Shown here: positions 2,219-31,212 of the stretch, one piece after another
Numbering within the stretch: the stretch's first letter is position 1
How the letters are laid out: each line of letters starts with the position of its first letter
Assembly: GCA_049303675.1 (NCBI GenBank)
Contig: JBAQNJ010000001.1
Span: 7,494 to 71,493 of the forward strand
Origin: Microgenomates group bacterium
GTDB taxonomy: Bacteria; Patescibacteriota; Microgenomatia; UBA12405
Direction: 5' to 3'
Length of the DNA: 64,000 nt
Notes under the pieces: model-generated
Database searches by the model: none
What the model was told of the DNA's origin: nothing
What the model saw: the letters and a program-made list of their open reading frames with translations, nothing else
Translations under genes and position numbers: made by a program

Positions 2219-4726
2219 CTATGAGCACTTACTATAACCACAATAACTATTTGAACATTTGAAACACCCCTCTTCAGCATACAACGGGCTACCACAATCA
2301 GGACAGGCGCTAAATTTACTCTCGCCATTTGCCAATTTTGTCCTCACATCTTTTAAAACATCTTGTTGTGTACGGGCAATCCCTTGTGGTTGCCCCTCTG
2401 TTATTGGCAGCTCTAATTTATCCTTCTCCCCTTCAAACAAATCCAACTGATCACCCTTGGCTACTTCTAGTAGTGCTTTACCAACAGCATCAAACATACT
2501 CAATGTCACATTTGTCCCAAATCCCGTCCTCTGTCCACAAGATATACCCACCAATTCATCGGCTACTTCTTCCAAATTGGCTCCATACTTGAGAGCCAAC
2601 GATGCCAATCGTCCAGTTACCTCTGCCGACCCCGCCATATAACCACCCGATTTTCCCAAATTAACGAATACCTCCACCGGACCATCTCCATCTTCGAAAA
2701 AGACCGAAGTATATACCTTCCCCGCATCACACACCTTTTGCATCCTCACCCCCCTCGCCGCCTCCGGCGTCTTCTTTTTGTTTTTCTGAGATCTGACATC
2801 TGATATCTGATTTACTTTTTCTCCACTCTTTACTGGTGCAATCACTTCTTTCTCTCTGCTGCCGCTTCTATATATAGTTATCCCTTTTGTCCCCAGTGAA
2901 TATGCCAACAAATAGGCAACTCGGACATCTTCAACTGTCGCCTCCTTGGGAAAATTTATTGTTTTGCTAACTGCATTATCAGTATATTTCTGAAAAGCAG
3001 CTTGAATCCGTACATGCCACTCTGGACTAATTTCCATGGCTGTTCGATACACATTCACCAAATCCACTGGCAATCCCTCCACCCCTGTTAGTTTTCCTCC
3101 ATTATCAACAATTTTTTTCAACAATTCTTCTGTATATAGTCCCCGCTTGGTCAACTCTTGGGTAAACACTTGATTTAACATAAACATTGAGTTCCCCTCG
3201 ACGTTGTTTTTCTGGTATCCCAAGGAAAATGCTGGCTCAATTCCCGATGTGGCATCGGCAATGTAGGATATTGTCCCAGTTGGCGCGATAGTCGTCAGAG
3301 CCATATTCCGTGGCCGATAATTGGTGTTGGCAAATACCGATATCTCCCAAGCCGGAAAAACATTTCGAGTCTTGGCCAATTCTACCGAGGCATTTTTTGA
3401 TTCTTCTTGAATAAATTTCATTACCTTCTCTGCCCAAGCCACACCCTCTTCCGAATCATAGCGGACCCCTAGTTTAAACAACATATCCGCAAAACCCATT
3501 ACCCCTAGTCCAATCCTCCGAGTCTTACTCACCATATCTCGAATTTTTTGGACAGGAAAAACATTCACCTCCACCACATTATCCAAAAAATGGACTGATT
3601 CATGTGTCACCCGACGCAATTCTTCCCAATCGATATCTTTTTGTAGAGACGTGCGATCGCGCGTCTCTACTACAAATCTCGACAAGTTTATTGATCCTAA
3701 GTTACACGCATCATAAGGCAATAAAGGCTGTTCACCGCAGGGATTTGTCGCCTCAATTCGTCCCAATGCTGGCACCGGATTACTACTTGGCTCATTCATC
3801 CGATCGATAAAGACTAATCCCGGATCGCCGTATTGCCAAGCGAGTCGAGTCACTAAATTAAACACTTTATAAGCATTTAATTTCATGGTCACCAGACCTG
3901 TGCGAGGATTAATCAACTCATAACCCTCACCCTCGCTAGTCGCCTTGGCCCAGTCATATAATTTCACCATCCAGCTTTCTATTGTTCGCAGTCTCAAGTC
4001 TACATCGCGTAAAGCTTCGGCCTGCCTAATCTCTTCAACTATCTCTTCGGGGAAATTTTCTTCGGTCACAAATTTTTTGTCTGGTTCAATTTGGTCCATA
4101 AATTTGTTCGTTATGGCCAATGAGATATTAAAATTAGTCAACGAGTATTCATCCAACTTAACTACTGCAAACCGGAGTACATCTGGGTGGTCCACCGACA
4201 ACATGCCCATATTGGCCCCCCGTCGCACCCCACCTTGTTTAATTTGCGAGGTCACATCGTTGTAGGCTTGCATAAATGACACTGGTCCCACCGTCGTCCC
4301 CCCAGAGCTAGCAATATAGTCCCCACTGGGACGCAATCGAGTAAATGAAAAACCGGTTCCACCACCACTCTTGTGAATCTTGGCCATATCCGACATTGTG
4401 TCCAATATCGAGTCCATCGAATCCTCTATTGGTAGGACAAAACAAGCCGACAATTGTTGATTTTTCTTACCGGCGTTGACCAGACACGGAGTGTTGGGAA
4501 AAAATTTTTGCTCTGCCAACATTTTATAAAATGTTCCTGCAGTGTTTTCTGTTTCCAGCTCACTCTTTCCAAAGACAATATCACCCTTAGCAATATTCAG
4601 AGCTACTCTCCAGAAAATATCCTTGACTGTCTCTACTGGCTTACCATCCTCACCTTTCATGGCATAACGCGTTTCGGCGATATAACGGGCGTTATCAGAA
4701 ACTATTGGGTCGATCAAATTTATCAT
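2219..4726 (-). CDS. nrdJ: ribonucleoside-diphosphate/triphosphate reductase, class II (adenosylcobalamin-dependent)
   Basis: 835 aa. Carries the NPCGEQPL...YDACNLGSINL active-site motif typical of class II RNR and a C-terminal Cys-rich zinc ribbon. Confidence 0.9.
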   Translation of the reverse strand: MINLIDPIVSDNARYIAETRYAMKGEDGKPVETVKDIFWRVALNIAKGDIVFGKSELETENTAGTFYKMLAEQKFFPNTPCLVNAGKKNQQLSACFVLPIEDSMDSILDTMSDMAKIHKSGGGTGFSFTRLRPSGDYIASSGGTTVGPVSFMQAYNDVTSQIKQGGVRRGANMGMLSVDHPDVLRFAVVKLDEYSLTNFNISLAITNKFMDQIEPDKKFVTEENFPEEIVEEIRQAEALRDVDLRLRTIESWMVKLYDWAKATSEGEGYELINPRTGLVTMKLNAYKVFNLVTRLAWQYGDPGLVFIDRMNEPSSNPVPALGRIEATNPCGEQPLLPYDACNLGSINLSRFVVETRDRTSLQKDIDWEELRRVTHESVHFLDNVVEVNVFPVQKIRDMVSKTRRIGLGVMGFADMLFKLGVRYDSEEGVAWAEKVMKFIQEESKNASVELAKTRNVFPAWEISVFANTNYRPRNMALTTIAPTGTISYIADATSGIEPAFSLGYQKNNVEGNSMFMLNQVFTQELTKRGLYTEELLKKIVDNGGKLTGVEGLPVDLVNVYRTAMEISPEWHVRIQAAFQKYTDNAVSKTINFPKEATVEDVRVAYLLAYSLGTKGITIYRSGSREKEVIAPVKSGEKVNQISDVRSQKNKKKTPEAARGVRMQKVCDAGKVYTSVFFEDGDGPVEVFVNLGKSGGYMAGSAEVTGRLASLALKYGANLEEVADELVGISCGQRTGFGTNVTLSMFDAVGKALLEVAKGDQLDLFEGEKDKLELPITEGQPQGIARTQQDVLKDVRTKLANGESKFSACPDCGSPLYAEEGCFKCSNSYCGYSKCS
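3643..3670. repeat. REP-like 28-bp palindrome GTAGAGACG-TGCGATCGCG-CGTCTCTAC inside nrdJ (in-frame)
   Basis: Encodes VVETRDRTSLQ within NrdJ. The reading frame is uninterrupted. Confidence 0.8.
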
Positions 4727-9007: not shown

Positions 9008-9433
9008 ATGGCTAAAAAAATAAAAATCGTCGTCAAGCTAGCAATTCAGGCCGGCATGGCCAACCCCGCTCCTCCAGTTGGTACTGCTCTCGGTCCTCAG
9101 GGTATCAAGATCATGGATTTCTGTAATGAATTCAATGAACGTACTAAAGATATGAAGGGTTCCCTTATTCCTTCTGTCATTACTATCTACGAGGATCGTT
9201 CTTTTGATTTTATAATCAAAAAACCTCCAGTCTCCGACATGATTAAAAAAGTTACCGGAATTACCAAAGGTTCAGGTACTACCGGTCGCGAAAAAATTGG
9301 CAAAATTACGGCTGCTCAAATCGAAAAAGTGGCTACCGACAAAATGACTGATTTGAACACCACTGACCTCGAAGCTGCCAAACGTATGGTCGCCGGCACC
9401 GCCAAATCCATGGGCTTTGAAATTGTCGCCTAA
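9008..9433 (+). CDS. rplK: 50S ribosomal protein L11
   Basis: MAKKIKIVVKLAIQAGMANPAPPVGTALGPQGIKIMDFCNEFN... Canonical L11. Confidence 0.95.
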   Translation: MAKKIKIVVKLAIQAGMANPAPPVGTALGPQGIKIMDFCNEFNERTKDMKGSLIPSVITIYEDRSFDFIIKKPPVSDMIKKVTGITKGSGTTGREKIGKITAAQIEKVATDKMTDLNTTDLEAAKRMVAGTAKSMGFEIVA

Positions 9434-9435
9434 AC

Positions 9436-9684
9436 ATGCCCAAAGTTGATGTCAACTTAGAAATCCAAAAAACGCATCCTTTTCTCGAAATATTGCATCA
9501 TGGTAAAGATGGTGATCAATTGTCATTGCTCTGTTCTCGTCGTCAAAATGGCTTTTTAGTTCGCGGCTGTAGTGCTATTTCTCAATTTGTCACAATCGAA
9601 GGTGACATTAAAAATGTTACCGGTTTTAATCCCATGGCCGAGTATGGTTGTCTTGAATGTTCTCGGGTAGGCAAACCCGCCTAA
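9436..9684 (+). CDS. questionable small Cys-rich ORF in an unusually long rplK-rplA spacer
   Basis: 82-aa ORF. The 390-nt rplK-rplA gap is atypical. Could be a small protein or a structured leader. Confidence 0.25.
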   Translation: MPKVDVNLEIQKTHPFLEILHHGKDGDQLSLLCSRRQNGFLVRGCSAISQFVTIEGDIKNVTGFNPMAEYGCLECSRVGKPA

Positions 9685-9823: not shown

Positions 9824-10585
9824 ATGAGCAAAACCTCACAAGCCAACAAAATTGCGAAGGAAGAGTCAAAAGTAAAAAAGACTCGCAAAGCTTCTACCGA
9901 AGTAGTTGAAACAACCACTGTCGAGCCTGAAGTAAATTCCACTGAAGTTACTACTGAAACTGTCGCTGAAGGAACAAAATCAGTTCGTACTGCCCGTGTT
10001 CGCGGCAAACGCTATCAAAAAGTCCGCAAACTAGTCGACCCCAACCAACTCTATCCCCTCACCGAGGCTATAAAATTAGTCAAAGAGACTTCTCTTTCCA
10101 AATTTGATGGCAAAGTCGAAGCTCATGTTACCGTACTGGATATCGGCAATCAGGGAGAGATTGTTTTCCCCCACCTCGAAGCCAGCTCCAAAAAAATCGT
10201 TATTTTAAATGATACAGTTTTGGCCGAAATCAAAGCTGGCAAGATAGATTTTGATATCTTGGTGGCAACCCCCATCACCATGCCCAAACTTCTACCTTTT
10301 GCTAAAATTTTGGGTCCCAAGGGTCTCATGCCCAACCCTAAAACCGGTACTCTGACCGACAAACCAGAAGACGCTGTCAAAAAGTTGTCTGTTGCCAAGA
10401 CAGTTATCACTACTGAGAAAAAAGCTCCGGTAGTTCATATTGTCATTGGTAAGGTTTCCCAAGATCCAAAAGAACTTGAAGCCAATGTTGCCGAATTGAT
10501 CAAGGTAATTAAACCAATCAAGATCAAAAAATTAGCTCTCTGTGCCACCATGGGACCGAGTGTTAAGGTCATTATTGAAAAATAA
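9824..10585 (+). CDS. rplA: 50S ribosomal protein L1
   Basis: L1 family with ...FPHLEASSKKIVIL...GPKGLMPNPKTGT...CATMGPSVKV C-terminus. Confidence 0.9.
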   Translation: MSKTSQANKIAKEESKVKKTRKASTEVVETTTVEPEVNSTEVTTETVAEGTKSVRTARVRGKRYQKVRKLVDPNQLYPLTEAIKLVKETSLSKFDGKVEAHVTVLDIGNQGEIVFPHLEASSKKIVILNDTVLAEIKAGKIDFDILVATPITMPKLLPFAKILGPKGLMPNPKTGTLTDKPEDAVKKLSVAKTVITTEKKAPVVHIVIGKVSQDPKELEANVAELIKVIKPIKIKKLALCATMGPSVKVIIEK

Positions 10586-10592
10586 AGTGGTC

Positions 10593-10613
10593 ATTCCCGA
10601 TCTAGTCGGGAAT
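10593..10613. repeat. ATTCCC-N9-GGGAAT hairpin element
   Basis: tcATTCCCgatctagtcGGGAATc directly after the rplA stop. Same family as the composite element at 23852-23913. Confidence 0.6.
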
Positions 10614-10624
10614 CTATTCAATTT

Positions 10625-10652
10625 GTAGAGACGCCATATATGGCGTCTCTAC
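10625..10652. repeat. REP-like 28-bp perfect palindrome GTAGAGACG-N10-CGTCTCTAC
   Basis: gtagagacgccatatatggcgtctctac. The arms are identical to the copies at 2131-2158 and 3643-3670. Confidence 0.8.
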
Positions 10653-10707
10653 TTGTTCACTAAAAGATTTTTAACTCAATCTATAGATTTACTTTTTTAT
10701 ATTATAG

Positions 10708-11040
10708 GTATATAATATATTTATTAGTAAAAATATTGTTGTTGAATTTCGCTCCAAAACTCAAGATGACAGACTCCTTGCAAAGGGGAAAATTAATAAA
10801 AATCTTCCAGATATTCGGGGACAAATAACGGATGTTACATACACTGGTACAGCCCTTGAAGAAGCACCCTTAATAAGAACAGTCGGTGCATGCAACGCTT
10901 CCATCATCGATTCAGGTAAAAGTGGGCCTAAGGTAACTATTGATGGATCCGATTACATATCAGAGCTAATGGCTCAACTAAATGGTGAACATATACCGAA
11001 TACTAATATTATTAAGGTGGTAATAAAGAGAGAGGGCTAA
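10708..11040 (+). pseudogene. ORF-like segment without a canonical start codon (possible gene fragment)
   Basis: 110 sense codons open from a TAG to a TAA. No ATG/GTG/TTG appears until near the end. Lies inside the block bounded by the duplicated rplA 3' end. Confidence 0.25.
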
Positions 11041-11063
11041 CTCCTTAACTTTCAAAACTGGCC

Positions 11064-11110
11064 CTCTGTGCCACCATGGGACCGAGTGTTAAAGTTGAGG
11101 TTATAAAATA
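11064..11110 (+). repeat. duplicated copy of the rplA 3' end (29/29 nt identical plus a diverged tail and stop)
   Basis: ctctgtgccaccatgggaccgagtgttaa recurs from 10539-10567 and is again followed by an in-frame stop about 19 nt later. Confidence 0.8.
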
Positions 11111-11111
11111 A

Positions 11112-11336
11112 TCATTCCTCAGGCAAATCAACCCGTCTAAATGGCGGGTTTTTTGTGATATCAATCTGTACTTTTCTCCCCAGAATCTCAAATGCACCAG
11201 CATTATATTTAAGAAATTCTTGCGCATCTAATCCATCATTTTCCCAACGACGGTTCAACTCTCTAATGGTCCCATCCATTCTCTCCACTTGTCTCATTTT
11301 TCTTGAAGCATCCAGTTTACTAATTTTTTTTGCCAT
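11112..11336 (-). CDS. hypothetical small protein (74 aa)
   Basis: Intact ORF abutting the duplicated rplA segment. Confidence 0.4.
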   Translation of the reverse strand: MAKKISKLDASRKMRQVERMDGTIRELNRRWENDGLDAQEFLKYNAGAFEILGRKVQIDITKNPPFRRVDLPEE

Positions 11337-11415
11337 ATCCTATATTATAGCAAACCACCTACCAATTGCACAGGCTTGTCCTATTTGTTATCATCAAAAT
11401 CTATTTACTCACTCC

Positions 11416-12786
11416 ATGTCCAAGTCAAACAAAATTCTACACTGTGGAATCGACTTTGGAACTACCAACTCCTCCCTCGCCATCTCCACCTTCGGAACAC
11501 CATCAATAGTACCTATAGACAGGCAGAATACCAACATTGGTGTCTTACGTTCCCTGATATATCTCAACCCTCTACATCAACAATCAGTTGGTTATGAGGC
11601 CATCAATCGCTATTTGAGTGATCTGACCACCCTTCCCTCAGTTCCCCTCCGTCAGGAATTAACTGGCCGACTTATCAAAACTTTTGGACCATCAGGCTCT
11701 AGTGGTGCCGGTCCTGTTATTTGGGTTCCTGAAGTTGTTGAAATCGACGACAGCGGTCGTGGTCGCCTACTCCAATCCCTCAAATCTGTTCTCACTAGTT
11801 CTGTTTTTAAGGGTACTATCATTTTTGGTAAATTTTATACTCTGATAGATCTTCTCACTATCCTCATGAAAGAAATCAAAACTCGCGCCGAAGCTGAAAT
11901 TGGTCATGAGCTGACATCAGCGGTCATCGGTCGACCGGTAAAGTACGTGGGTAAAGAAGAAAATAGTCTCGCCCTCGAGCGGATGCAACAAATCGCTAAA
12001 AATTCCGGATTCAAACATATCGAATTCGAGTACGAGCCTGTTGGTGCCGCTTTAAATTATGCTAAACAAATAAAAACACCTCAAAATATATTGGTTTTTG
12101 ACTTTGGTGGTGGCACTCTCGACATTTGTATTATGCGCCTACCTTCTCAGGAAATTATTGCCGTCTCTGGACGAGGTATCGGTGGTGATCTACTCGACTC
12201 TCAAATAGCCAAAGCATATTTACTCCACCATTTTGGCTCCACTGCGATAATCAATAACAAAATAAATATGCCCAAACACTTCTTTGCTGGATTTAACAGT
12301 TGGTACGAGACCACCCTCCAAAAAACCATCAAAAACATCGACAGCTTGCGCCAATTATCGATACAATCTGACCAACCAGAAAAAATCCACAATCTAATTT
12401 CTCTCATCAATCATGATTACGGATTCGAGTTTTTCCGAACTGTTGACGAAGCCAAAATCGCACTGAGTGACTTTGATACATTTAATTTTGATTTCAGCCG
12501 TCCTCAATTATCAATCCAACAACCACTTACCCGCTCTGGCTTCGAAGAATCCATTATCAACGAACTCGAAGAATCACAAAAGTGTATCTACGAATCCCTT
12601 ACCCAAGCCGGACTCAAACCAAATCAAATAGACAAAGTTATTCTCACTGGTGGCTCTTCCCAAATCCCTGTCTTTATTCATCTGATATCTGACATCTTCT
12701 CATCTGACAAACTTATAGTCTCTGACCATTTTACCTCCGTCGCCGCCGGTCTCGCCCTTCGGGCAGAAAAGCTGTTCTCTTGCTAA
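11416..12786 (+). CDS. Hsp70-family actin-like ATPase (nucleotide-binding domain only, YegD-like)
   Basis: ILHCGIDFGTTNS (phosphate-1), VFDFGGGTLD (phosphate-2) and LTGGSSQIP (adenosine motif). Approx. 456 aa, without an Hsp70 substrate-binding domain. Start set at the internal ATG before MSKSNK. Confidence 0.7.
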   Translation: MSKSNKILHCGIDFGTTNSSLAISTFGTPSIVPIDRQNTNIGVLRSLIYLNPLHQQSVGYEAINRYLSDLTTLPSVPLRQELTGRLIKTFGPSGSSGAGPVIWVPEVVEIDDSGRGRLLQSLKSVLTSSVFKGTIIFGKFYTLIDLLTILMKEIKTRAEAEIGHELTSAVIGRPVKYVGKEENSLALERMQQIAKNSGFKHIEFEYEPVGAALNYAKQIKTPQNILVFDFGGGTLDICIMRLPSQEIIAVSGRGIGGDLLDSQIAKAYLLHHFGSTAIINNKINMPKHFFAGFNSWYETTLQKTIKNIDSLRQLSIQSDQPEKIHNLISLINHDYGFEFFRTVDEAKIALSDFDTFNFDFSRPQLSIQQPLTRSGFEESIINELEESQKCIYESLTQAGLKPNQIDKVILTGGSSQIPVFIHLISDIFSSDKLIVSDHFTSVAAGLALRAEKLFSC

Positions 12787-12796
12787 AATATACCTA

Positions 12797-13465
12797 GTGA
12801 AAAAACAAAATGTCATCTTGATTCATGGTTGGGGCACTACCTGGCAGTCACTCTACCCCCTATTCGCTGGATTAAAAGACAAATACGATGTATTTACTCC
12901 TAATTTACCTTATCCCACAAATAAAGTTTTAACTCTAGACGATTACTGTCAATTTATTTTGGATTTTATCTCTCAAAATAAAATAGACAAACCAATTTTA
13001 ATTGGCCACTCACTAGGTGGTGCAATTAGTACCAAAATTGCCACTAACCACCCTAAATTAATTTCCAAAATTATTCTCCTGTCTGCTGCCAGCGTCCGCC
13101 ACGAACTCCCACCCTATATTAAATTTTTTCAAAAATTTGGCAAACTTCTTCACCCTTTTCGTCAGCAGATATTAAAACTAATGAAACTCGATGCCTCGGA
13201 TTATATCGTCCTCAAAACTGAAATTGAAAAACAAACTTTCCGCAACTTAATTCACGCCGACCAAAGAGAATCATTATCCTCAATCCATATTCCTACATTA
13301 ATTCTCTGGGGAGACAACGACCAATCAACCCCTCTCTCCGATGGTCAACTAATTCACCAACTAATTCACCAATCTACTTTTAAATCTTATCCAAATACAG
13401 GCCATTTTTTTTACTTAACTTATCCAAATGACGTCATCCAAGATATAATTAAATTCATCAAATGA
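12797..13465 (+). CDS. alpha/beta-fold hydrolase
   Basis: VILIHGWG oxyanion region and GHSLGG nucleophile elbow. GTG start. Confidence 0.75.
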   Translation: MKKQNVILIHGWGTTWQSLYPLFAGLKDKYDVFTPNLPYPTNKVLTLDDYCQFILDFISQNKIDKPILIGHSLGGAISTKIATNHPKLISKIILLSAASVRHELPPYIKFFQKFGKLLHPFRQQILKLMKLDASDYIVLKTEIEKQTFRNLIHADQRESLSSIHIPTLILWGDNDQSTPLSDGQLIHQLIHQSTFKSYPNTGHFFYLTYPNDVIQDIIKFIK

Positions 13466-14643
13466 CACTTAAAAGTTTTCTCTATCTAACCCAACTCGAA
13501 GAATATAATGTCCCTCGTATTAAAAGATGGCTAGCCCAAAATCCCCACCGTGAAGTCAAAGAAATAAAACAAAAACTAATCTGGACCACCAAAATAAAGT
13601 TTTTAAATATTATCGCCAAGATATTATTTTTTCTGGCTCCCCCTGTTTCCATCTCCATCGGAATCTACCTACTGGCTCCTCTTGATTTCATATTAAAATA
13701 TTTGATTGTTCTCGTTGCTTATATTAAATTAAGAATTTTTCACCGACGATTGACCATTGTCGCTATCACCGGATCTTGGGGCAAGACCACCACCAAAGAC
13801 ACATTACTCGATCTAATTAAGTCAAAATACATCGCTTTTGCCACTACTGCCAATCACAATACCCTACTTGGAGTTTGTCAGGACATTATTAGCCTACCTC
13901 TCAACTCTCAATTTTTTATTGCCGAAATTGGCGCTTATTACTCGGGCGATATTCGCCAAGTCGCCAAAATTCTACGTCCAAAATACGCCATTATCACTGC
14001 CATTGGACCGATGCATCTCGAGCGCTTTGGCACTATTGAAAAAATAATTGATACTAAGATGGAACTCCCTCAAACCATCACCCAAGATGGTTGGATATTT
14101 ATTCCGGATGAGATAAAACAAAAGATATTTCACATTCGCCTAAATTCCAAAAACATCCTGTTTTTCAACAAAATCAATGATGTTTATCAACAAATAACCC
14201 AACTGCTAAACATCTCCGACTACAAGAATATAGTTTCCAGCCATCCGCCATCTGACCACCGCCTCCAAATCAGTACCAATAATGGTATCACCATCATTGA
14301 CGACACTTATAATAGTAACCCAGCCGGCTTTGAGCGAGCCCTGACAAAACTTGCAGAATACAAATCTACCAACAAAATACTGATTACTCCTGGAATGATC
14401 GAATTAGGTAACCTGCAGGAAATGGAAAACACTCGTCTGATCAAAATGGCCAGCAAAATCTGTCAACACATAGTAGTAGTTGGTCAAACTAACAAAAAGT
14501 CATTACTTGACGGTTTAAGGAACACTAAATCAAAAATACATCTAGTCAATCAAACCTCCGACACTCTAAGGTTACTACCCACTATTACTACAAATGGGGC
14601 CGTTGTCCTCTTTGAAAACGACCTCCCCGACCACTATCTCTGA
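13462..14643 (+). CDS. murF: Mur ligase family protein (MurF-like) with N-terminal TM segments
   Basis: ITGSWGKTTTKD P-loop and DDTYNSNP motif of MurF/Mur ligases. The N-terminal 90 aa are hydrophobic instead of the usual N-terminal domain. Confidence 0.65.
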   Translation: MTLKSFLYLTQLEEYNVPRIKRWLAQNPHREVKEIKQKLIWTTKIKFLNIIAKILFFLAPPVSISIGIYLLAPLDFILKYLIVLVAYIKLRIFHRRLTIVAITGSWGKTTTKDTLLDLIKSKYIAFATTANHNTLLGVCQDIISLPLNSQFFIAEIGAYYSGDIRQVAKILRPKYAIITAIGPMHLERFGTIEKIIDTKMELPQTITQDGWIFIPDEIKQKIFHIRLNSKNILFFNKINDVYQQITQLLNISDYKNIVSSHPPSDHRLQISTNNGITIIDDTYNSNPAGFERALTKLAEYKSTNKILITPGMIELGNLQEMENTRLIKMASKICQHIVVVGQTNKKSLLDGLRNTKSKIHLVNQTSDTLRLLPTITTNGAVVLFENDLPDHYL

Positions 14644-15797
14644 AATTTTGCCCCGCCACTACTAGTTTTCAATAGTTTTGTATCAAAACTTCTTTGCAAT
14701 TTGTTCATTTTGGCATGTCTTTCAAATCCCAAAGCGATTAATTTATCCACCACTTGAGCATAGGTATACCCCGATTTTTCCCAAATATAAAAAGATAATC
14801 CTCCCGGTAGCGTATTTATTTCATTGATATAGACAATTTCCCTTTTTATATCCACCAAAAAATCAATGCGAGATAGTCCTGCTGCTCCGATCGCTCGAAA
14901 AGCCATCTTGGCATAATTTTGAATCTTGTCTCTCAATCTATCTGGTATTGGCGCCGGCAATAATCTAGCCAGTCCCGCCATCCCTTTAGTCTTGCCTCCG
15001 AGCAGGTACTTTTCCTCATAGGTCAATACCTTATCTGTCTTAATCGGCTGCTCACACACCGATACTTCCAATTCATCCACTCCCATCACCGAGCAATTTA
15101 TCTCGTCTATGCCCACCAATCCCTCTTCAATTAATATCTTCCGATCAAACTCCTTGGCCACCTCGACAGCCCACTCTAATTCGACCCTATCTTTAGCAAA
15201 ATTTATGCCCACACTCGATCCCAAATTCGCCGGCTTGACACACATCGGATAACCCAAATTTTTTTCCAATTTTGTTACCAGTTCTTCCTTTCTATCACTC
15301 CACTCCCAGTCCATAAACCACTCATATCTGACAATTGGTATTCCCTCTTTTTCAAACACCGCTTTTTGCATGACCTTGTCCATCCCCACTGCTGCCGCTC
15401 CCACTCCACAACCAACATAGGGTATCCCCGTCATTTCCAACAATCCCTGCAGAGTCCCGTCTTCACCATATGTCCCATGGAGTGCCGGAAAAACAATGTC
15501 TATTTCTGATGGCATGCCCTGACCCGACTCCATCAACACCAAACTTTTCTGACCCACCACTGCCGGCAACATACACTCCACCAATTTATTTTTGGCTACC
15601 AATTCCAAATTCATAAATGATTCCAATTTGTCTAAATCTTTGCCAGTGTTCCACCTACCCTGTTTATCGATATAAATTGGCACTGCTTCGTACTTTTCTT
15701 TATCCATGGCCGCAAACACTTCCATCGCCGTCACAATTGATACCTCATGTTCTACTGATCGACTACCAAAAAGTACCGCCACCTTTATTTTTTTCAT
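14634..15797 (-). CDS. ddl: D-alanine--D-alanine ligase (ATP-grasp)
   Basis: MKKIKVAVLFGSRSVEHEVSIVTA N-terminus typical of Ddl. ATP-grasp body, 387 aa. Confidence 0.8.
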   Translation of the reverse strand: MKKIKVAVLFGSRSVEHEVSIVTAMEVFAAMDKEKYEAVPIYIDKQGRWNTGKDLDKLESFMNLELVAKNKLVECMLPAVVGQKSLVLMESGQGMPSEIDIVFPALHGTYGEDGTLQGLLEMTGIPYVGCGVGAAAVGMDKVMQKAVFEKEGIPIVRYEWFMDWEWSDRKEELVTKLEKNLGYPMCVKPANLGSSVGINFAKDRVELEWAVEVAKEFDRKILIEEGLVGIDEINCSVMGVDELEVSVCEQPIKTDKVLTYEEKYLLGGKTKGMAGLARLLPAPIPDRLRDKIQNYAKMAFRAIGAAGLSRIDFLVDIKREIVYINEINTLPGGLSFYIWEKSGYTYAQVVDKLIALGFERHAKMNKLQRSFDTKLLKTSSGGAKFQR

Positions 15798-15831
15798 AGT
15801 CTATTTTAACATCACTGGGAAATATCAGATT

Positions 15832-16050
15832 CTACGAATTAGCCTCAACAATTTCCATGTAGTGAACTGCTCTATCAAGTGATTTTCTAACTTTACCTAC
15901 CGAGACACCCTCTCCTCTGGCAACTTCTCGCACCGTCAAATCCTTTAATGCAAACAGGGTTGCCCGTCTGGCCTGATATTCTGGTAACAACATACCTAGT
16001 CGCCCTGCCGAAAATTTCCCCAATAGTTCTTTTTGATCTTTTATATTCAT
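15832..16050 (-). CDS. small sigma-70 region-4-like HTH protein (YlxM/UPF0122-like)
   Basis: Approx. 72 aa with ...LKDLTVREVARGEGVSVGKVRKSLDRA... HTH. Start set at the internal ATG (MNIKDQ). Confidence 0.45.
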   Translation of the reverse strand: MNIKDQKELLGKFSAGRLGMLLPEYQARRATLFALKDLTVREVARGEGVSVGKVRKSLDRAVHYMEIVEANS

Positions 16051-16064
16051 CACCAATATTATCA

Positions 16065-16643
16065 CTATTTTCTTACAATATCCAAAATCTCTTCCACCCT
16101 CTCCACCACCCAATCCGCCCCTGCATCAATCAGCGATTGTTTATGATTGAATCCCCAGCTAACTGCAATAATTTTTACACCCACTTTTTTGCATGCCTCT
16201 ACATCTCGCACTTCATCCCCCACATAGAAATCAATTTTCATTTTTTTGAGTATCTTTTCTTTACTTACCATGACACTGGCTGTTTCCAAAAAATCAACCT
16301 CTATCTGCCATTTGTTTAGCCATTTATTTATATTTTCAGCTGTATTTTTCGACAATATTCCTACTTTTATACCCTCAGTCCTCAAATCATTTATTAAATC
16401 CTTAATTCCCCCAAAGGGTCTGGCCTTCGCCACTATTTTGTATTGACCTTTTTGGACTAATCCCACAGTCCTAATCACCTCAAACATTGACGGTTTTAGA
16501 CTCGCCAGTGCCTTTTTGGCGCCACCTACTCGATATAGCTCAACATGTTCAGCCGTCAGTTCTGGATGAATTTCTCTTAGCAACCCAATCGTCTGCTCCC
16601 ATGTATCTGCCAATGTTCCATCAAAATCGAAAACAACTTGCAT
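16065..16643 (-). CDS. HAD-superfamily hydrolase (phosphatase)
   Basis: Motif I VVFDFDGTLADT at the N-terminus. Later K...GDEVRDVEA motif III/IV region. Confidence 0.8.
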   Translation of the reverse strand: MQVVFDFDGTLADTWEQTIGLLREIHPELTAEHVELYRVGGAKKALASLKPSMFEVIRTVGLVQKGQYKIVAKARPFGGIKDLINDLRTEGIKVGILSKNTAENINKWLNKWQIEVDFLETASVMVSKEKILKKMKIDFYVGDEVRDVEACKKVGVKIIAVSWGFNHKQSLIDAGADWVVERVEEILDIVRK

Positions 16644-17215
16644 TACTGGCTCTTAAATTCCTTGTTATTCTTCATTTCCTTCTCGATTAAGTTTCTCAAA
16701 AACACTGATCGAGGTATCATTCTCTTTTGCGCTACCCAATCCAAATAAGCCAAAATTTTGGGGCTAACAAAAAAATTAAACCGGACATCCATACTTTTCC
16801 CAGCTTCTTCAAGAGTCCTTGACAAAACATTTTCTAAATTATCCTTATGATATTCAACCCACCAAACTTTTTCGTGTTCGATTCCTTTAAACAAAATTGG
16901 TTCATGATCTTTGGTGTACAGTACAACTACCGGTTTCCCCTTCTGCATTGCTAGGGTAATTTCATGGCCGATATGCAAAGTTGATGGATATGATGCTTCA
17001 AACACGCAAAAATCAGCTTTATCTAAATTTTTAGACATTCCCCTGTACAGTTTTTTTCTATCATCGTCAGGCATGTCAAAACCACTAGGTGATGCCTGAA
17101 ACATAGTATTATCTAATACTTCAAAATTACTATGTTTGAGAACTTTCAAAATCTTACTATAGTTATCCGAATATTGTTCTTTGTATAGCCTTGACGCTGA
17201 AAAATATATCTTCAC
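16643..17215 (-). CDS. nucleoside 2-deoxyribosyltransferase-like protein (tentative)
   Basis: Begins MKIYFSAS..., approx. 190 aa Rossmann-like. The assignment is a pattern guess only. Confidence 0.3.
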   Translation of the reverse strand: MKIYFSASRLYKEQYSDNYSKILKVLKHSNFEVLDNTMFQASPSGFDMPDDDRKKLYRGMSKNLDKADFCVFEASYPSTLHIGHEITLAMQKGKPVVVLYTKDHEPILFKGIEHEKVWWVEYHKDNLENVLSRTLEEAGKSMDVRFNFFVSPKILAYLDWVAQKRMIPRSVFLRNLIEKEMKNNKEFKSQ

Positions 17216-17255
17216 GACATATTATCTCAGAAAAAATCTAAAAATCAAAATATCA

Positions 17256-17795
17256 TTACTTTTTTCCTATCTGTAACTCTCCTAGCTCTTTTTTGGATTT
17301 TATTACTATTAATTTATTCCGGTAATTCCGCAAAGTATCTTCACATTTTCTAATAAAAAAACTGGTTTCACTATTGAAGTTTTTCCAAGTCTCTTTTCCA
17401 AAATATTGACCCAATATCCATCTGGATAATATAAGGTTATTGTGAACACCATAAACATCTCTTTGGTTTTTATCAGTAAAGTATCTTTTCCACTGCCAAA
17501 TTAGAGGTATCGACAGTGGTAAATTAATGAATACTATTACTTCTGCTTCATTCAAAATATTTTCTAGCAGATAAGAGCCTTCAATTATCCAATCCTTATT
17601 GTTTTCCAGTATCTTTCTGATTTTGTTTTTATAATTTTTTTCAGATCTGTATCTAAAAATTTTTGTTTTAATCAGGTAATCACGATCGATAAATACCATG
17701 TCCAAATCAAAATGAGGTATTCTTTCTTTATACGAAATAGAATTAGCAACCGTTGATTTACCAACGCAAGATGGACCAATAATGTATATTTTCAT
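17256..17795 (-). CDS. P-loop NTPase (adenylate/nucleoside kinase-like)
   Basis: MKIYIIGPSCVGKSTVA Walker A immediately after the chosen start. Approx. 180 aa. Confidence 0.65.
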   Translation of the reverse strand: MKIYIIGPSCVGKSTVANSISYKERIPHFDLDMVFIDRDYLIKTKIFRYRSEKNYKNKIRKILENNKDWIIEGSYLLENILNEAEVIVFINLPLSIPLIWQWKRYFTDKNQRDVYGVHNNLILSRWILGQYFGKETWKNFNSETSFFIRKCEDTLRNYRNKLIVIKSKKELGELQIGKK

Positions 17796-17959
17796 ATTTA
17801 ATCCAGTTATTATACCCCCAAACATATCATTATCAACCATCATTCGTCCAAAAATATGCTACCTGTTAATGACTAGACAGACCAACCCATCGTCATTAGA
17901 ATTTCTCTAATCTAAAGCAATATTGTCCAATTTCATCCTGTTGAATCTATTCACGGTGA

Positions 17960-18217
17960 ATGATACAATTTGCTATGTATCGGTTACGCATAACAGAAGT
18001 CTCTCCATTACTAGATGGAGCTTGGGTAGTAACATCACAGAGTCGTGACGGAAAAAAGGTCACTCAGATTATTGGTGATCAATCACTTTTCGAAATATTG
18101 TACTCACGCACAAGACCTTCTCACCCCAAAGACGAGAGTAAAGATTCGAGTGAGCTACCACAATATCAAAACGCTCAAGAAGATGTGCAAATGCGATTTG
18201 GAGTCGTTGGATTATAA
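17960..18217 (+). CDS. possible leaderless small protein (85 aa)
   Basis: TTGAAT-17-TACAAT promoter-like pair at 17926-17953, with the ATG 6 nt after the -10. Protein-like composition. Confidence 0.3.
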   Translation: MIQFAMYRLRITEVSPLLDGAWVVTSQSRDGKKVTQIIGDQSLFEILYSRTRPSHPKDESKDSSELPQYQNAQEDVQMRFGVVGL

Positions 18218-18424
18218 TCAAAGCTTTCAGAATAATTATTGTCTCTGTATAATTTTCTTATGGACACTATTCGTCCTTTTGTTATCATCGGTTTCCCCAA
18301 TGGCACCCAAATTGGCCCCAGATTATTGATGCCCAAGGAAGTTTCTTTTCTGATTAGCGAACACAAAACAGATGGCTCTCCTCAGATTAATCGATATAGT
18401 TTATCTCAGTTGCTTGATCAGCAT

Positions 18425-19459
18425 TTATTTGAAGTGCGTCCCGAAAAAGCCCAAGTCAGCCGCTACCGCCTCATTCCATCCGCCTTTTAGGTTGTGATCT
18501 GCGCCTTCATACACCACTAGTTCTGCCCCAATCGCCCTAGCTACCGGCCGCTGCCATTCTAGTTTTACTTGATTATCTCTATTCCCTTGCTGAATCAATA
18601 CTGGCGCCTTGATCCAATCATAATAATTTTCAAAAGCATAGCGCCGACTGTCATAATGTTTTTGGAATTCCTCTATCACTGCCTTGACCGGACTACCCTC
18701 GTCAATTGTTGACAATACACTCTCCGGAAACGGTTGAGTCATCGGCGCCCACAAAACCGTCGGATAAGACTGCCCCGTAATTTCTAGTACCGACAAAGCA
18801 ATTTGACCCCCATTACTATGTGCCCAAATACCAATCCTATTTTTATCCACCCAAGGCAGTTGTTTAACTGACTCAATCAGATCAAGTACTTCCACTACTT
18901 TATGAAACCGTGCCTCCAACATATCACTTGATTCTGTATCAGAATGTCCATATCCCAAAAAATCCAGACTAATAGTGACATAATTTGGTTTACCCGCCGA
19001 CTGGCGGGCCAACTCATCTGCCACCTTCCAACTCCCCGACCCTACATAATATCCCTCTTTTTCGGCATACCCCCGAATCATGATGATTACTGGTACGAAC
19101 ACGCCATGGCGTGTTCCTACATCTTTTGGCATATTTATCATCCCACTCACCCATTTACCATCACTTTTAAATCTAATTTCTCTGGTTGTAAAGTCGTATT
19201 CTATTGTCCTTCTATCTTCCACTTCGGGAATATTCCCTAAAATTTCCAACTTTCTACTTTCAACTTTATGAACCTGCCTGCCGGCAGGCATGGCTTTATG
19301 AACTCGGCGAAGCTCATCAAAATCATATTTTTCTAAAAAAAAATTATTATTTATTTCTTTTTGTTTTCCTATGGGATTTATTATATTTCTCGGCCAAAAA
19401 TAAAACAGACAACCACCAAACAAAATCAAAAAAAATATTATGCCAATTTTCCTTACCAC
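18425..19459 (-). CDS. membrane-anchored alpha/beta hydrolase (S9/dienelactone-hydrolase-like)
   Basis: N-terminal TM, GIWAHSNGG nucleophile elbow, later D and H (GADHNL). Carries an in-frame 30-bp palindromic insertion (AMPAGRQVHK). Confidence 0.75.
   Translation of the reverse strand: MVRKIGIIFFLILFGGCLFYFWPRNIINPIGKQKEINNNFFLEKYDFDELRRVHKAMPAGRQVHKVESRKLEILGNIPEVEDRRTIEYDFTTREIRFKSDGKWVSGMINMPKDVGTRHGVFVPVIIMIRGYAEKEGYYVGSGSWKVADELARQSAGKPNYVTISLDFLGYGHSDTESSDMLEARFHKVVEVLDLIESVKQLPWVDKNRIGIWAHSNGGQIALSVLEITGQSYPTVLWAPMTQPFPESVLSTIDEGSPVKAVIEEFQKHYDSRRYAFENYYDWIKAPVLIQQGNRDNQVKLEWQRPVARAIGAELVVYEGADHNLKGGWNEAVAADLGFFGTHFK
19264..19303. repeat. GC-rich palindromic mini-element (CTGCCTGCCGGCAGGCATGG) with a 10-bp target-site duplication, inside a CDS
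   Basis: ctttatgaac | ctgcctgccggcaggcatgg | ctttatgaac. 30 nt = 10 codons, in-frame. The protein shows RVHK-AMPAGRQVHK-VES. Confidence 0.8.
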
Positions 19460-19462
19460 ACT

Positions 19463-19750
19463 CTATTTTACTCTAGCCGCCAACTCATCATAATAATTGT
19501 TTAATACATGAACCACTCTTTTTCCTTTTCCCTTTACAAAATATTCTCCTCCTGTCGCCAATAGTTCATCAGGGTCGATATTACACTTAGCCATGACTGC
19601 CAATTCTTCAATCGCCCTCACTTTCAAGTCAACCCCTTTCAACTCTGGCTCTCGCCTCCTCACTCTCGTAGCTGAAATAGTCAACAATGTCCCCAGTCGC
19701 GAATTCATCCCTACCCCTTCCAGAAACTGATTTTTATGACCAATATTCAT
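19463..19750 (-). CDS. hypothetical protein (95 aa)
   Basis: Intact ORF, no motifs. Confidence 0.4.
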   Translation of the reverse strand: MNIGHKNQFLEGVGMNSRLGTLLTISATRVRRREPELKGVDLKVRAIEELAVMAKCNIDPDELLATGGEYFVKGKGKRVVHVLNNYYDELAARVK

Positions 19751-19983
19751 AAAAAATCCTCCCTCACCGACAACTTACAACATCTCTATTTTAACCCTTT
19801 AAAATCTCCTGCCAACCCCCATAAAAAAGCCAGTATTCTTTATTAAAAACTAAACTTAAATGTTTTTCTAAATTCTTTCATCCCCGCTTCAATTCCATCA
19901 AAGTCTTTATCTGTCAATTTTAACTCAAATTCTTTTGTATTTTTTTTAGTTATTTTCTTCATCCCTCATTTTACCCCAAAACC

Positions 19984-20334
19984 TTGACTTTTAAGAGAGG
20001 GAGGGAGAGAATAAAGCCAATTATGGACCAAAAACTATCCCCAGAACGAAATGAAGAAATTGCTCAAGGTGGAGTGCCTTGGGATATTGGTAGTATATCT
20101 GCAGTCAAAGCTGATGTATCTGATTTGTTAGGAACAACGCCAATCACTACCGATGATTTATTTTCAATAATGGGAAAAGGATCAGGAGTTCTTACACTTT
20201 AGAAGCTCGTCATGCATTTGCAAAGAAAGCCCTTATATCATTATCAAATCGTGATGATGAACAAGTAGAAGTATTACTTGATTCTGCAGTCAAAACAATC
20301 AATGAACGTCTTGCAGCTGCCAAGAAAACATAAC
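19984..20334 (+). pseudogene. small gene apparently split by a +1 frameshift near 20200
   Basis: The 72-aa ORF stops at 20202, but the +1 frame continues protein-like (EARHAFAKKALISL...ERLAAAKKT*) to 20334 and is preceded by a GGGAGGGAGAG Shine-Dalgarno. Confidence 0.35.
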
Positions 20335-20399
20335 TCTTCTTTTTCTTTTTTTTCTGTTATACTATCCCTTGTCCTACCGAAGACAGCCGGTTTTCTAGA

Positions 20400-20509
20400 A
20401 ATAGAATATAATTCCTGCCGAGGAACAAATTAGATTTTCTAAATCTACGCCTCGTTCTTCGAGGCTTTTTTATTTTACTTTATAAACTTTCAACTTTACA
20501 AACTAACGT
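20400..20509 (+). promoter_or_regulatory. putative L10 (rplJ) leader with attenuator hairpin
   Basis: Hairpins ttcctgccgaggaa and acgcctcgttcttcgaggc followed by TTTTTTATTTT end 33 nt before the rplJ ATG. The position matches the known L10(L12)4 autoregulatory leader. Confidence 0.5.
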
Positions 20510-21028
20510 ATGAAAATCAATAAAACCAACAAAATCGTCAAGGTCGACGATGTCGTCGCCAAATTAACCAGCGCCAAATCCGCCGCTCTCGTCCAATATC
20601 AGGGTCTCAATGCCGCCAAGGTCGTTGCCCTCCGCGACAAAGTCCGTCAAACTGGTGGTACTCTCGAAGTCACCAAAAATTCCCTAATTTTTCGCGCTTT
20701 ACTCAAAATGGGCATCGCCCTACCCGAAGAATTGGTCGGGCCCACTGCCATTGCCTATTCCAACGCCGACGAAGTTGCTCCTCTCAAAGAAATTGATGCT
20801 GTCAACAAAGCTTCCGAAAAAACATTTTTCAAATATGGCATTTATGCGGGCAAACTCTTGTCCCTCGATGAACTCAAAAAATTTATTTCCCTTCCTTCAA
20901 AATCCACCCTCATTGCTCAATTTATTGGTGGACTCAAAAACCCCTTGCAACGTATGGTCTATGCTATGCGCTACAATCAGACTCGGTTAGTCATGACTCT
21001 CCAAGCCATCGCCGACAAAGGCAAATAA
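20510..21028 (+). CDS. rplJ: 50S ribosomal protein L10
   Basis: ...SAALVQYQGLNAAKVVALRDKVRQTGGTLEVTKNSL... L10 family. Confidence 0.9.
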   Translation: MKINKTNKIVKVDDVVAKLTSAKSAALVQYQGLNAAKVVALRDKVRQTGGTLEVTKNSLIFRALLKMGIALPEELVGPTAIAYSNADEVAPLKEIDAVNKASEKTFFKYGIYAGKLLSLDELKKFISLPSKSTLIAQFIGGLKNPLQRMVYAMRYNQTRLVMTLQAIADKGK

Positions 21029-21120: not shown

Positions 21121-21504
21121 ATGGATGCAAAATTAACCAAAATCCTCGACCAAATTGCTGAATTATCAGTAATGGATTTATCTGAATTGGTCAAAGCTTT
21201 AGAAGAAAAGTTCGACGTCAAGGCTGTCGCCATGGCTGCCGCTCCCGCCGCTGGTGCTGCTGCCGGTGCCGCTGCTCCTGCCGCCGAAGAGAAGACCGAA
21301 TTTGATGTGGTCATCAGCAATGCTGGTACCAACAAAATCGCTGTCATCAAAGTTGTCCGCGAATTCAAGCCAGAACTCGGCCTCAAAGAAGCCAAGGATA
21401 TGGTCGATGCCGCCCCAGCCACTCTGGGCACCATGAAAAAAGATGCCGCTGCCGAAGCCAAGACCAAACTCGAAGCCGCTGGCGCAACAGTGGAACTAAA
21501 GTAA
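21121..21504 (+). CDS. rplL: 50S ribosomal protein L7/L12
   Basis: N-terminal dimerisation helix, Ala/Pro-rich hinge ([19 protein letters not shown]), C-terminal ...[25 protein letters not shown]... domain. Confidence 0.95.
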
Positions 21505-21569: not shown

Positions 21570-22100
21570 TTAAAACCCCTCCGGTCCCGCATCTGCGGGA
21601 CCACCTCCCCTTGACGAAGGGGAGCTTTTCAATAAAATCTCTCTTTCTCTAACCACGCTTTCTAATCTATTTCTGACATTATCCAAACCACTCATCAACT
21701 CCCTGCTATTTATTCTAATTGTTAATATATTCAAAATATCAAAATATTTATCTCTCTCATTGTCATAATATTTGTTTCTCAAATGATAGCCTCCGTCAAC
21801 TTCAACAATTAGGAGTAGCTCTGAGCAGTAAAAATCAGCTATAAACTTTCCTATTGGTTTTTGTCTAGTAAATTTGTAACCCAGCCTTCGGTTGTTTAAT
21901 ATTTCATACCACAAAATATTTTCTGTTTTTGTCGAATTAACACGACCTTTTCTAGCTAGGTTTCTCAACGTATCAAGATATTTTAAGTTTTGTCTAGCAG
22001 TCAATGCTTCCACTGGTACTAAATGTTTCACTACGTTATAGTGTTCTGTATTGTCCCCCTTCGTCAAGGGGGATACAGGGGGTTTGTTATAATCCACCAT
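21570..22100 (-). CDS. DUF559 (Vsr-like endonuclease fold) domain protein
   Basis: ...ENILWYEILNNRRLGYKFTRQKPIGKFIADFYCSELLLIVEVDGGYH... is characteristic of DUF559. Both ORF ends run through GC-rich hairpin repeats. Confidence 0.7.
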   Translation of the reverse strand: MVDYNKPPVSPLTKGDNTEHYNVVKHLVPVEALTARQNLKYLDTLRNLARKGRVNSTKTENILWYEILNNRRLGYKFTRQKPIGKFIADFYCSELLLIVEVDGGYHLRNKYYDNERDKYFDILNILTIRINSRELMSGLDNVRNRLESVVREREILLKSSPSSRGGGPADAGPEGF

Positions 22101-30069: not shown

Positions 30070-30093
30070 AAATCATATTTCTTAAATCATAAG

Positions 30094-30660: not shown

Positions 30661-30702
30661 AACTCATCATAACACCTACCTATGCCGAATAAAATACGAA
30701 GA

Positions 30703-31179: not shown

Positions 31180-31212
31180 TTTTTCGTAATTCGTAATTTT
31201 TAATTCGTAATT
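31097..31212. repeat. clusters of AATTCGTAATT tandem motifs (one inside the ruvC 5' coding region, one in the ruvC upstream spacer)
   Basis: caattcgtaattcgtaatttttaattcgtaatta (31097-31130) and ttcgtaattcgtaatttttaattcgtaatta (31184-31212). Confidence 0.8.

Follow-up and report, generated by a model that had tools for sequence, protein, structure and literature searches.

Why does the 3' end of rplA, the gene encoding ribosomal protein L1, occur twice within a few hundred nucleotides in the genome of a Microgenomates group bacterium, and does the second copy mark the edge of an inserted island? The locus lies in a 64,000-nucleotide stretch of contig JBAQNJ010000001.1 (positions 7,494 to 71,493 of the forward strand), which we call the window and number from its first nucleotide. 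An earlier reading of the sequence (the original prediction) placed the end of rplA at 10585 and the start of rplJ at 20510, and both gene calls and Pfam agree with this. It took the approx. 10-kb block between the two genes for an insertion at the rplA 3' end; however, the repeats bracket only 526 nt, and the block is the inherited gene order of a Shapirobacteria-like (Microgenomates) clade, not an inserted island. We interpret the duplicated end, with a probability of about 0.6, as the scar of a homology-anchored recombination event that placed two rplA-end alleles side by side. The features on which this interpretation draws are given below; numbers prefixed L or P denote other contigs and L1 proteins that were retrieved, and ORF stands for open reading frame.

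9824-10585, + strand: rplA, encoding ribosomal protein L1 (253 amino acids; Pfam Ribosomal_L1, 7e-21; 120 homologues at 62-83% identity)
10528-10597, + strand: copy 1 of the duplicated rplA end, consisting of codons KLALCATMGPSVKVIIEK, the stop codon, AGTGG and TCATTCC
10538-10566, + strand: first copy of the perfect 29-nt core
10593-10613, + strand: hairpin ATTCCC-N9-GGGAAT (ATTCCCGA-tctag-TCGGGAAT), orthologous to the hairpin directly 3' of rplA in L110
10625-10652, + strand: 28-nt perfect palindrome GTAGAGACG-N10-CGTCTCTAC
10688-10716, + strand: promoter-like site TTTACT-17-TATAAT, a consensus match only (10/12), directly 5' of ORF110 and overlapping its start
10708-11040, + strand: ORF110, a 110-codon open frame with no ATG, GTG or TTG start
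11054-11118, + strand: copy 2, the orphan rplA end, consisting of LSKLALCATMGPSVKVEVIK with a type 2 tail, a stop codon and then TCATTCC
11064-11092, + strand: second copy of the perfect 29-nt core
11112-11336, - strand: orf74, a small conserved ORF convergent on rplA, with counterparts of 72 amino acids in L110 and 71 amino acids in L083
11130-11156, + strand: intrinsic terminator AACCCGTCTAAATGGCGGGTT with a T-run, orthologous to the terminator 3' of rplA in L110 and overlapping the 3' end of the convergent orf74

The L1 protein of the window carries a low-complexity N-terminal extension of roughly 60 amino acids, and the active gene ends in a type 1 tail (..KVIIEK followed by the stop codon). 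The window contains exactly two copies of the 29-mer CTCTGTGCCACCATGGGACCGAGTGTTAA, at 10538-10566 and 11064-11092, and none of 100 shuffles contained any match. The perfect recurrence had been predicted correctly, although its first copy had been placed one nucleotide too far downstream (10539-10567). The wider similarity between the copies extends over 58 nt at 81% identity (10528-10585 versus 11054-11111). Both copies are in direct orientation, both are in frame and both stop at TAA, so that the related tail and stop codon expected after the second copy are indeed present. Eleven mismatches of mixed types (T>C, A>G, G>A, C>T and others) fall in the flanks and none in the 29-nt centre, and the three differences 5' of the core are all synonymous (TTA GCT versus CTG GCC). 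Among 38 distinct clade alleles, which differ from each other at a mean of 6.8 positions, an identical 29-mer is shared by only 0.4% of allele pairs, and the allele closest to the window core has at least three differences. The 29-nt identity exceeds what chance or conservation gives.

Copy 2 comprises the last 19 codons of rplA, and is preceded by an in-frame TAA (11046-11048) and by unrelated DNA. Lacking a start codon and the 5' part of the gene, the orphan end is silent. The sequence TCATTCC follows the stop codon of both copies, and 3' of the orphan it corresponds to the 5' arm of the hairpin that is located 3' of copy 1.

The active and the orphan ends represent two forms of the L1 C-terminus that are both common in relatives. 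The last five residues of the 120 homologues fall into a type 1 tail (x-x-[IV]-E-K, n=63) and a type 2 tail (x-E-x-x-K, n=43), with a few shorter forms. The active copy in the window is of type 1 (VIIEK), a tail also found in P0019-21 and P0039. The orphan copy is of type 2 (VEVIK), which ends real L1 proteins in P0028, P0037, L086, L102 and L103. On a tree of the 120 L1 bodies the tail type switches at least 23 times, and proteins only 0.4% apart in the body may differ in tail type.

Nucleotide comparisons between close relatives reveal how sharply these changes are delimited. L096 (..ILIEK) and L102 (..VEVIK) are closely similar over the 45 nt 5' of the tail and again from ~8 nt past the stop codon, while 8 of the 15 nt of the tail itself differ. 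For most 60-nt intervals L126 and L085 show no difference at all, and discrete patches of divergence lie in between. The most extensive patch covers the last approx. 19 codons of rplA together with the terminator, and starts at the same KLA codons as the duplication in the window. The rplA body of L103 is common with that of L096, but the downstream DNA is entirely different. The gap between rplA and the Hsp70-like gene that follows it is also variable: it holds nothing in L088, one or two small ORFs in L083 (10792-11534), L086 (10877-11314) and L110, an ABC transporter in L085 (10935-12614) and L126, and an AbiE pair, including AbiEii, in L132 (919-2126). This turnover of tails and downstream DNA marks the conserved LCATMGPSVK core as the border between a stable upstream part and an often-exchanged downstream part, and the comparisons indicate that L1 tail alleles are exchanged by recombination. 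Given that the orphan corresponds to the other natural allele and that its upstream differences are synonymous, it is a piece of another functional rplA allele and not a decayed duplicate.

The ~450 nt between the copies are unrelated to the local sequence. The hairpin, the palindrome and the start-less 110-codon frame that had been noted there from the letters could all be located, and the hairpin together with the palindrome gives a predicted fold with z = -7.6. The codon usage score of ORF110, 0.174, is higher than those of its other five frames and falls among the values for real genes of this genome (5-95%: 0.113-0.353), and an open frame of this length occurs in 0.7% of shuffles. It matched no Pfam family and no word-sharing homologue in a word-indexed search of 5.8 billion proteins, and it contains no recombinase motifs. 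An exhaustive phmmer search returned only cadherin-type and other repeat proteins, matches that were repeat-inflated and that we judged spurious. A single-sequence AlphaFold model was unusable, with a predicted local distance difference test score (pLDDT) of 35. ORF110 is most likely a fragment or a decayed accessory gene of a hotspot at the rplA end.

The key comparison is with L110, which belongs to the closest lineage and has the same L1 C-terminus as P0002 (a protein 81% identical to the L1 of the window over its full length). The order in L110 is rplA (type 1), TAATAAT, hairpin GTCATTCCCGCgaagGCGGGAATC, TATTTAATACTAA, terminator ACCCGCCTAAATGGCGGGTTTTTTGTTATATC, orf72 and the Hsp70-like gene, and the hairpin with TATTTAAT runs straight into the terminator. 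Its hairpin and TATTxAAT match the DNA 3' of copy 1 in the window, and its terminator and small ORF match the DNA 3' of copy 2. Relative to L110 the window therefore contains ~507 extra nt, consisting of the palindrome, an AT-rich stretch, ORF110, the orphan tail and 19 nt. Two histories would fit these sequences. The window lineage may have gained the piece, or the ancestor may have had the displaced structure and the L110 lineage may have deleted it. An uninterrupted order of rplA, tail 2, TAATCATTCC and terminator would mark tail 2 as the resident one. The databases hold no relative closer than 83% L1 identity. One contig scan used a full-length L1 alignment and generic patterns (GLMPNPK..); the close relative L003 was among the matches listed, and the scan was reused as a control outside the candidate phyla radiation (CPR).

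For the scar itself we infer the type of recombination, the donor, the direction, the kind of junction and the side that is foreign, as follows. DNA from a related strain with the other tail allele would have recombined at the rplA end. The anchor of homology would lie in or beside the highly conserved LCATMGPSVK coding core, and the second junction would not be the usual homologous one. This may have happened by homology-facilitated illegitimate recombination, with the illegitimate join ~12 nt 5' of the core; a candidate TCAAAA microhomology for this join can be read at 11050-11057. It may also have happened by a single Campbell-type crossover within the 29-nt identity. A crossover that requires a stretch of identity would leave such a perfect core; the illegitimate-join model has no need of it. 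The outcome would in both variants be no clean allele swap; one tail would be displaced downstream and kept as an orphan, and rplA would stay intact with its own stop codon and hairpins. The scar is probably functionless.

Several observations are those that displacement of a 3' end predicts. The orphan still contains part of the conserved coding stretch but not the 5' part of rplA, and the active and orphan ends are distinct natural alleles, each of which ends functional genes in other strains. In the pairs L096/L102 and L126/L085 alleles have been replaced cleanly, with the breakpoints at the conserved stretch, and a second L1 tail, sought by regular expressions and blastn-short in 63 loci, was found only in the window and in L121. 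The window also encodes ComEA and ComEC (52192-54403) as well as RuvA, RuvB and RuvC (29095-31179), as would suit an organism that takes up DNA and recombines it homologously. Saccharibacteria have been shown to be naturally competent and to recombine (PMC10633639). With regard to the original prediction, which had read the duplication as a gene end regenerated by integration, its insertion-type event, displaced spare end and complete gene are retained here, but we find no support for a 10-kb insert or for site-specific integration.

Other observations weigh against recombination between two alleles. A 29-nt identity with divergence on both sides also looks like the core of a site-specific attachment (att) site, and identical cores between alleles are rare, as noted above. 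However, only two core positions differ in the conspecific pair L085/L126, so coincidental identity between close strains is possible. L110 shares sequence with both flanks and so does not polarise the event, either as to the resident tail or as to its direction, and no relative at 95% identity or above with an empty site or a donor sequence was found. ORF110 has gene-like codon usage yet no homologue. A small residual caveat is that the link from copy 1 to ORF110 across the palindrome rests on the NCBI assembly alone.

A precedent for such scars exists. The displacement of C-terminal coding ends, leaving orphan 3' ends behind, has been described at Rhs, CdiA and type VI secretion system (T6SS) effector loci (Jackson 2009; Kirchberger 2017, PMC5361080). 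The origin proposed there is homology-facilitated illegitimate recombination (de Vries & Wackernagel 2002, Prudhomme 2002, cited in PMC5361080). In the T6SS/Rhs model clean replacement is frequent and displacement leaving orphans is rare (PMC5361080). The window resembles these loci in that a conserved coding stretch is the anchor and a new 3' end with its downstream DNA takes over the gene, while the old 3' end, pushed downstream, keeps a short conserved piece but no 5' part. It is also alike in that clean replacement is common in relatives and displacement is rare. However, the gene in the window encodes a ribosomal protein whose variable tip is only five codons long, there is no recognisable immunity-like partner (ORF110 being start-less), and a single orphan is present in place of an array. 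A toxin domain as the variable tip and a cognate immunity gene, as in polymorphic toxin loci (Rhs, CDI or T6SS effector-immunity), are not seen: the gene encodes ribosomal protein L1, the tip has five residues and ORF110 belongs to no family. If the scar is read correctly, it is a clear case, in a core ribosomal protein gene, of a displaced 3' end of the kind otherwise known from toxin loci. Taken with the repeated exchange of the two L1 tails among uncultured Microgenomates and with the similar scars at other gene ends in Patescibacteria, it supports frequent homologous, and occasionally illegitimate, recombination in bacteria whose genetics is hardly accessible through culture. Duplicated gene ends beside hairpins could be mistaken for islands or misassemblies by annotators and by curators of metagenome-assembled genomes.

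The block between rplA and rplJ has the following content.

11416-19750, mixed strands: block conserved in the clade, separating rplA from rplJ and lying outside the insertion
11416-12786: Hsp70/MreB-like ATPase
12797-13465: alpha/beta hydrolase
13462-14643: Mur ligase
14634-15797, - strand: Ddl
16065-16643, - strand: HAD protein
16643-17215, - strand: weak nucleoside deoxyribosyltransferase-like (ndt-like) gene
17256-17843, - strand: P-loop kinase-like gene
18425-19459, - strand: alpha/beta hydrolase
19463-19750, - strand: ORF of 95 amino acids
20359-20480, + strand: L10 leader RNA 5' of rplJ (Rfam RF00557, 46.3 bits against a gathering score of 44)
20510-21028, + strand: rplJ (Pfam Ribosomal_L10)
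21121-21504, + strand: rplL

These gene calls and their Pfam matches agree with the content expected by the original prediction (an Hsp70-like ATPase, hydrolases, murF-like and ddl genes, and genes of nucleotide metabolism). The separation of the rplKA and rplJL clusters, and the position of the duplication at the left edge of the block, could suggest that the whole approx. 10 kb is an island integrated at the rplA 3' end. We give this idea almost no credence. The closest L1 proteins to that of the window come from Candidatus Shapirobacteria, and the Hsp70/MreB-like gene lies 3' of rplA in every Shapirobacteria-like relative fetched (L083, L085, L086, L088, L110, L126, L132 and the contig of P0019). 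The synteny of the block holds down to 67% L1 identity. L088, with an L1 protein 80% identical to that of the window, has the order of the window (Hsp70-like, alpha/beta hydrolase, Mur ligase, Ddl, HAD, ndt-like), and L083 (78%) has rplA, Hsp70-like, Mur ligase, methyltransferase, hydrolase, small ORFs and rplJ-rplL. The duplicated rplA end is absent in L083, L085, L086, L088, L126, L132 and L110. Relatives thus have the same or nearly the same order with no duplication, an outcome that counts directly against the proposed insertion. There is no third copy of the core near rplJ, the block contains no mobility genes, and its GC content is within the range of the flanks. A distance of 0.5-6 kb between rplA and rplJ is common in other Microgenomates, Saccharibacteria and other Patescibacteria.

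The L10 leader upstream of rplJ is an observation in its own right for a CPR genome, although it lies only just over the gathering score. With its own leader rplJL forms an independently regulated unit, so the rplKA and rplJL halves are separate, which also speaks against the island.

To search for comparable scars we scanned 1.6 Mb of fetched loci for gene tails repeated downstream, with tails taken from other loci as the control. We identified four further structures with the order tail, stop, hairpin, orphan tail, stop, all in Patescibacteria and all shorter than that of the window. At rplA of L121 (1490-1582) two perfect copies of the 30-mer ATGGGGCCATCAGTTAAAGTCCAAAAATAA flank a 33-nt hairpin (CGGAAT..ATTCCG), and this 63-nt insertion is absent in the sister contigs L120 (near 2650-2690) and L122 (near 1890-1930). 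L122 itself (9282-9375) contains an ORF of 171 amino acids whose end, ENLLEKNK followed by a stop codon, is encoded twice around a hairpin of the L121 family. The copies differ at 9 of 27 nt, all synonymously. In L011 the nusG tail LQVQKI with its stop codon occurs twice (2486-2555) around a hairpin resembling repetitive extragenic palindromic (REP) elements, with only synonymous differences, and the rplA tails IHLDLNSL and IHLDLASL, each with a stop codon, likewise surround a REP-like hairpin (3950-4051). No relatives of L011 close enough to polarise its two scars were found. The architecture therefore occurs at rplA in three lineages (window, L121 and L011), at nusG in L011 and at the 171-amino-acid gene in L122. 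No such scars were detected in 984 kb of non-CPR loci. However, the enrichment is weak: at a loose threshold 5 cases were observed where 1.4 were expected, and the 5 include one repeat artefact.

The GTAGAGACG palindrome is dispersed across the clade. It occurs three times in the window (at 10625, 2131 and 3643) and directly 3' of rplA in L085 and L086. The copy at 3643-3670 lies in frame within the ribonucleotide reductase gene (2219-4726, - strand), where it reads ..VVETRDRTSLQ.., and the other copy is at 2131-2158. The same loop of the reductase has a different palindrome-derived insert in L083 and no insert in L085. Dispersed hairpins of this kind are familiar as the palindromic elements of Rickettsia and as REP elements and bacterial interspersed mosaic elements (BIMEs). 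The palindromes described here resemble them in being short, in lying 3' of genes as well as in frame within genes (as in the reductase) and in being variably present in relatives. To our knowledge, neither the Rickettsia elements nor REP and BIME sequences leave duplicated gene ends; unlike them, the hairpins found here separate a gene tail from an orphan tail at five sites.

Four accounts compete with allele recombination as the source of the duplicated end. The relic of a site-specific integrative element is possible, although we regard it as unlikely. An element whose attachment site (attP) mimicked the rplA 3' end would have integrated at the 29-nt core and regenerated the gene with its own tail; after loss of the integrase and most of the DNA, attL, ~0.45 kb and attR would remain. 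Elements that integrate at the 3' ends of protein genes and supply a substitute end include e14 and phage 21 at icd and integrative and conjugative elements at rplL, and islands at tRNA and tmRNA genes are similar. The direct repeat with its perfect 29-nt core, diverged on both sides, at the 3' end of a gene that carries a diverged replacement tail while the original tail is displaced, has the classic anatomy of att sites in such elements. The rarity of identical cores among alleles speaks for this account, the start-less ORF110 could be the remnant of an element gene, and the second lineage, L121, has an rplA-end duplication overlapping the same ATGGGNCC..GTTAA region. However, unlike the known elements the window has only 0.45 kb between the repeats and no integrase: integrase, transposase and resolvase families are missing among the genes of the 64-kb window, and neither the segment nor the window contains an integrase, excisionase or transposase domain. 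ORF110 is without recombinase motifs and homologues, no viral contig contained the degenerate core, and the segment and ORF110 had no match among phage, plasmid and viral sequences. A larger element at rplA is present in 0 of roughly 45 clade loci. Homology is also seen upstream of the core, where the codons differ synonymously, and the hairpin 3' of copy 1 is chromosomal in L110, so that the putative arm of the element looks like the ordinary chromosome of a related strain. A tandem duplication was the alternative offered by the original prediction; here the rplA end would have been duplicated locally, the copies would have diverged and unrelated DNA would have been inserted. This account is in keeping with the direct orientation of the copies and with the TCATTCC 3' of both, but we consider it very unlikely: the orphan tail is the other natural and genuine allele in place of a decayed copy, the differences upstream of the core are all synonymous, with 11 mismatches in the flanks and 0 in the 29-nt centre, and the 450 nt between the copies have no local counterpart.

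The insertion of a mobile, REP-like hairpin at a gene end, duplicating 20-70 nt of the coding end, with later enlargement in the case of the window, would account for the four short structures in Patescibacteria contigs and their absence from the non-CPR loci. It also agrees with the mobility of the palindromes, as judged from the reductase site that differs among the window, L083 and L085, and with the identity of the TCATTCC of the orphan to the 5' arm of the hairpin 3' of copy 1. We nevertheless find it doubtful. The in-frame insertion in the reductase gene has no long flanking duplication, so long target duplications are not general for these palindromes, and duplicated lengths of 21-70 nt are unlike the stagger of a transposase. 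In L122, in L011 and in the window most differences between the copies are either synonymous or a matter of allele type, which fits two orthologous alleles better, and the enrichment on which this account would draw is weak and includes an artefact. The last of the four is an artefact of assembly, in which two co-existing strains with different rplA ends would have been stitched in tandem. The source is a metagenome-assembled genome, strain-level tail dimorphism exists in such populations, and the join across the 28-nt palindrome is not confirmed by Logan contigs. However, this is extremely improbable. Logan contigs built with k=31 from two separate sequencing runs are 100% identical to the window, L002 covering rplA, copy 1 and the hairpin, and L124 and L125 running from the palindrome through ORF110, copy 2 with its orphan tail, the terminator and orf74 to the Hsp70-like gene. 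With k greater than 29, real k-mers from the reads connect each copy to its own flanks, and the possibility raised in the original prediction that the 29-nt repeat is artefactual is set aside by its reproduction in these independent assemblies. These contigs are interrupted only at the 28-nt palindrome, with a 28-nt overlap between them, and the central 10-mer of the palindrome is unique in the window. The left junction of the orphan with non-rplA DNA is real whatever the long-range join.

Some further mechanisms were considered and rejected. Diversity-generating retroelements, with their pairs of variable and template repeats (VR/TR), also show the 3' end of a gene repeated a few hundred nucleotides downstream in direct orientation. 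However, no reverse transcriptase was found among the called genes of the window, and the 11 mismatches are not adenine-specific. A shufflon or other invertible switching of 3' ends does not apply, as the copies are direct and not inverted and there is no recombinase. Target-site duplication by a transposase is excluded by lengths of 21-70 nt, which are too long and too variable, and a reading as integron cassettes was likewise rejected.

The recurrence of tail, hairpin and orphan tail might also be taken as the mark of an undescribed mode of insertion in Patescibacteria, in which hairpins or DNA that has been taken up enter the 3' ends of genes together with a replacement coding end. We offer this only as a speculation that is probably incorrect. 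If it were true, this mode of insertion would keep a two-state L1 tail in circulation, and the silent tails would be occasional donors or the leftovers of allele switching.

Near ruvC a 31-nt direct repeat of the TTCGTAATTCGTAATT type occurs at 31101-31131 and 31184-31214. We considered it as a further scar and rejected it, as it is a TTCGTAATT-type repeat of which one copy encodes the normal RuvC N-terminus (..NYELKITNYEL..). The other copy overlaps the end of the upstream metallophosphoesterase gene.

An ORF of 82-83 amino acids without a Pfam family lies directly 3' of rplK and before rplA in the window (9436-9684), in L085 (9368-9616) and in L126 (4612-4863). A comparable ORF of 85 amino acids is found before rplK, directly 3' of nusG, in L089 (668-925). 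L126 and L085 diverge in this small-ORF region next to rplK, which forms one of the patches of their mosaic.

Directly 3' of rplL is a DUF559 gene (Vsr-like endonuclease fold; 21570-22100, - strand). From roughly 24.9 to 29 kb the window contains a series of small unknown ORFs, among which CopG-like and HTH_17 (excisionase-type) domains occur but no recognisable integrase. Further downstream (43825-50979, - strand) a protein of 2384 amino acids with only faint Kelch and FN3 matches is encoded next to ABC-transporter and FtsX-like genes.

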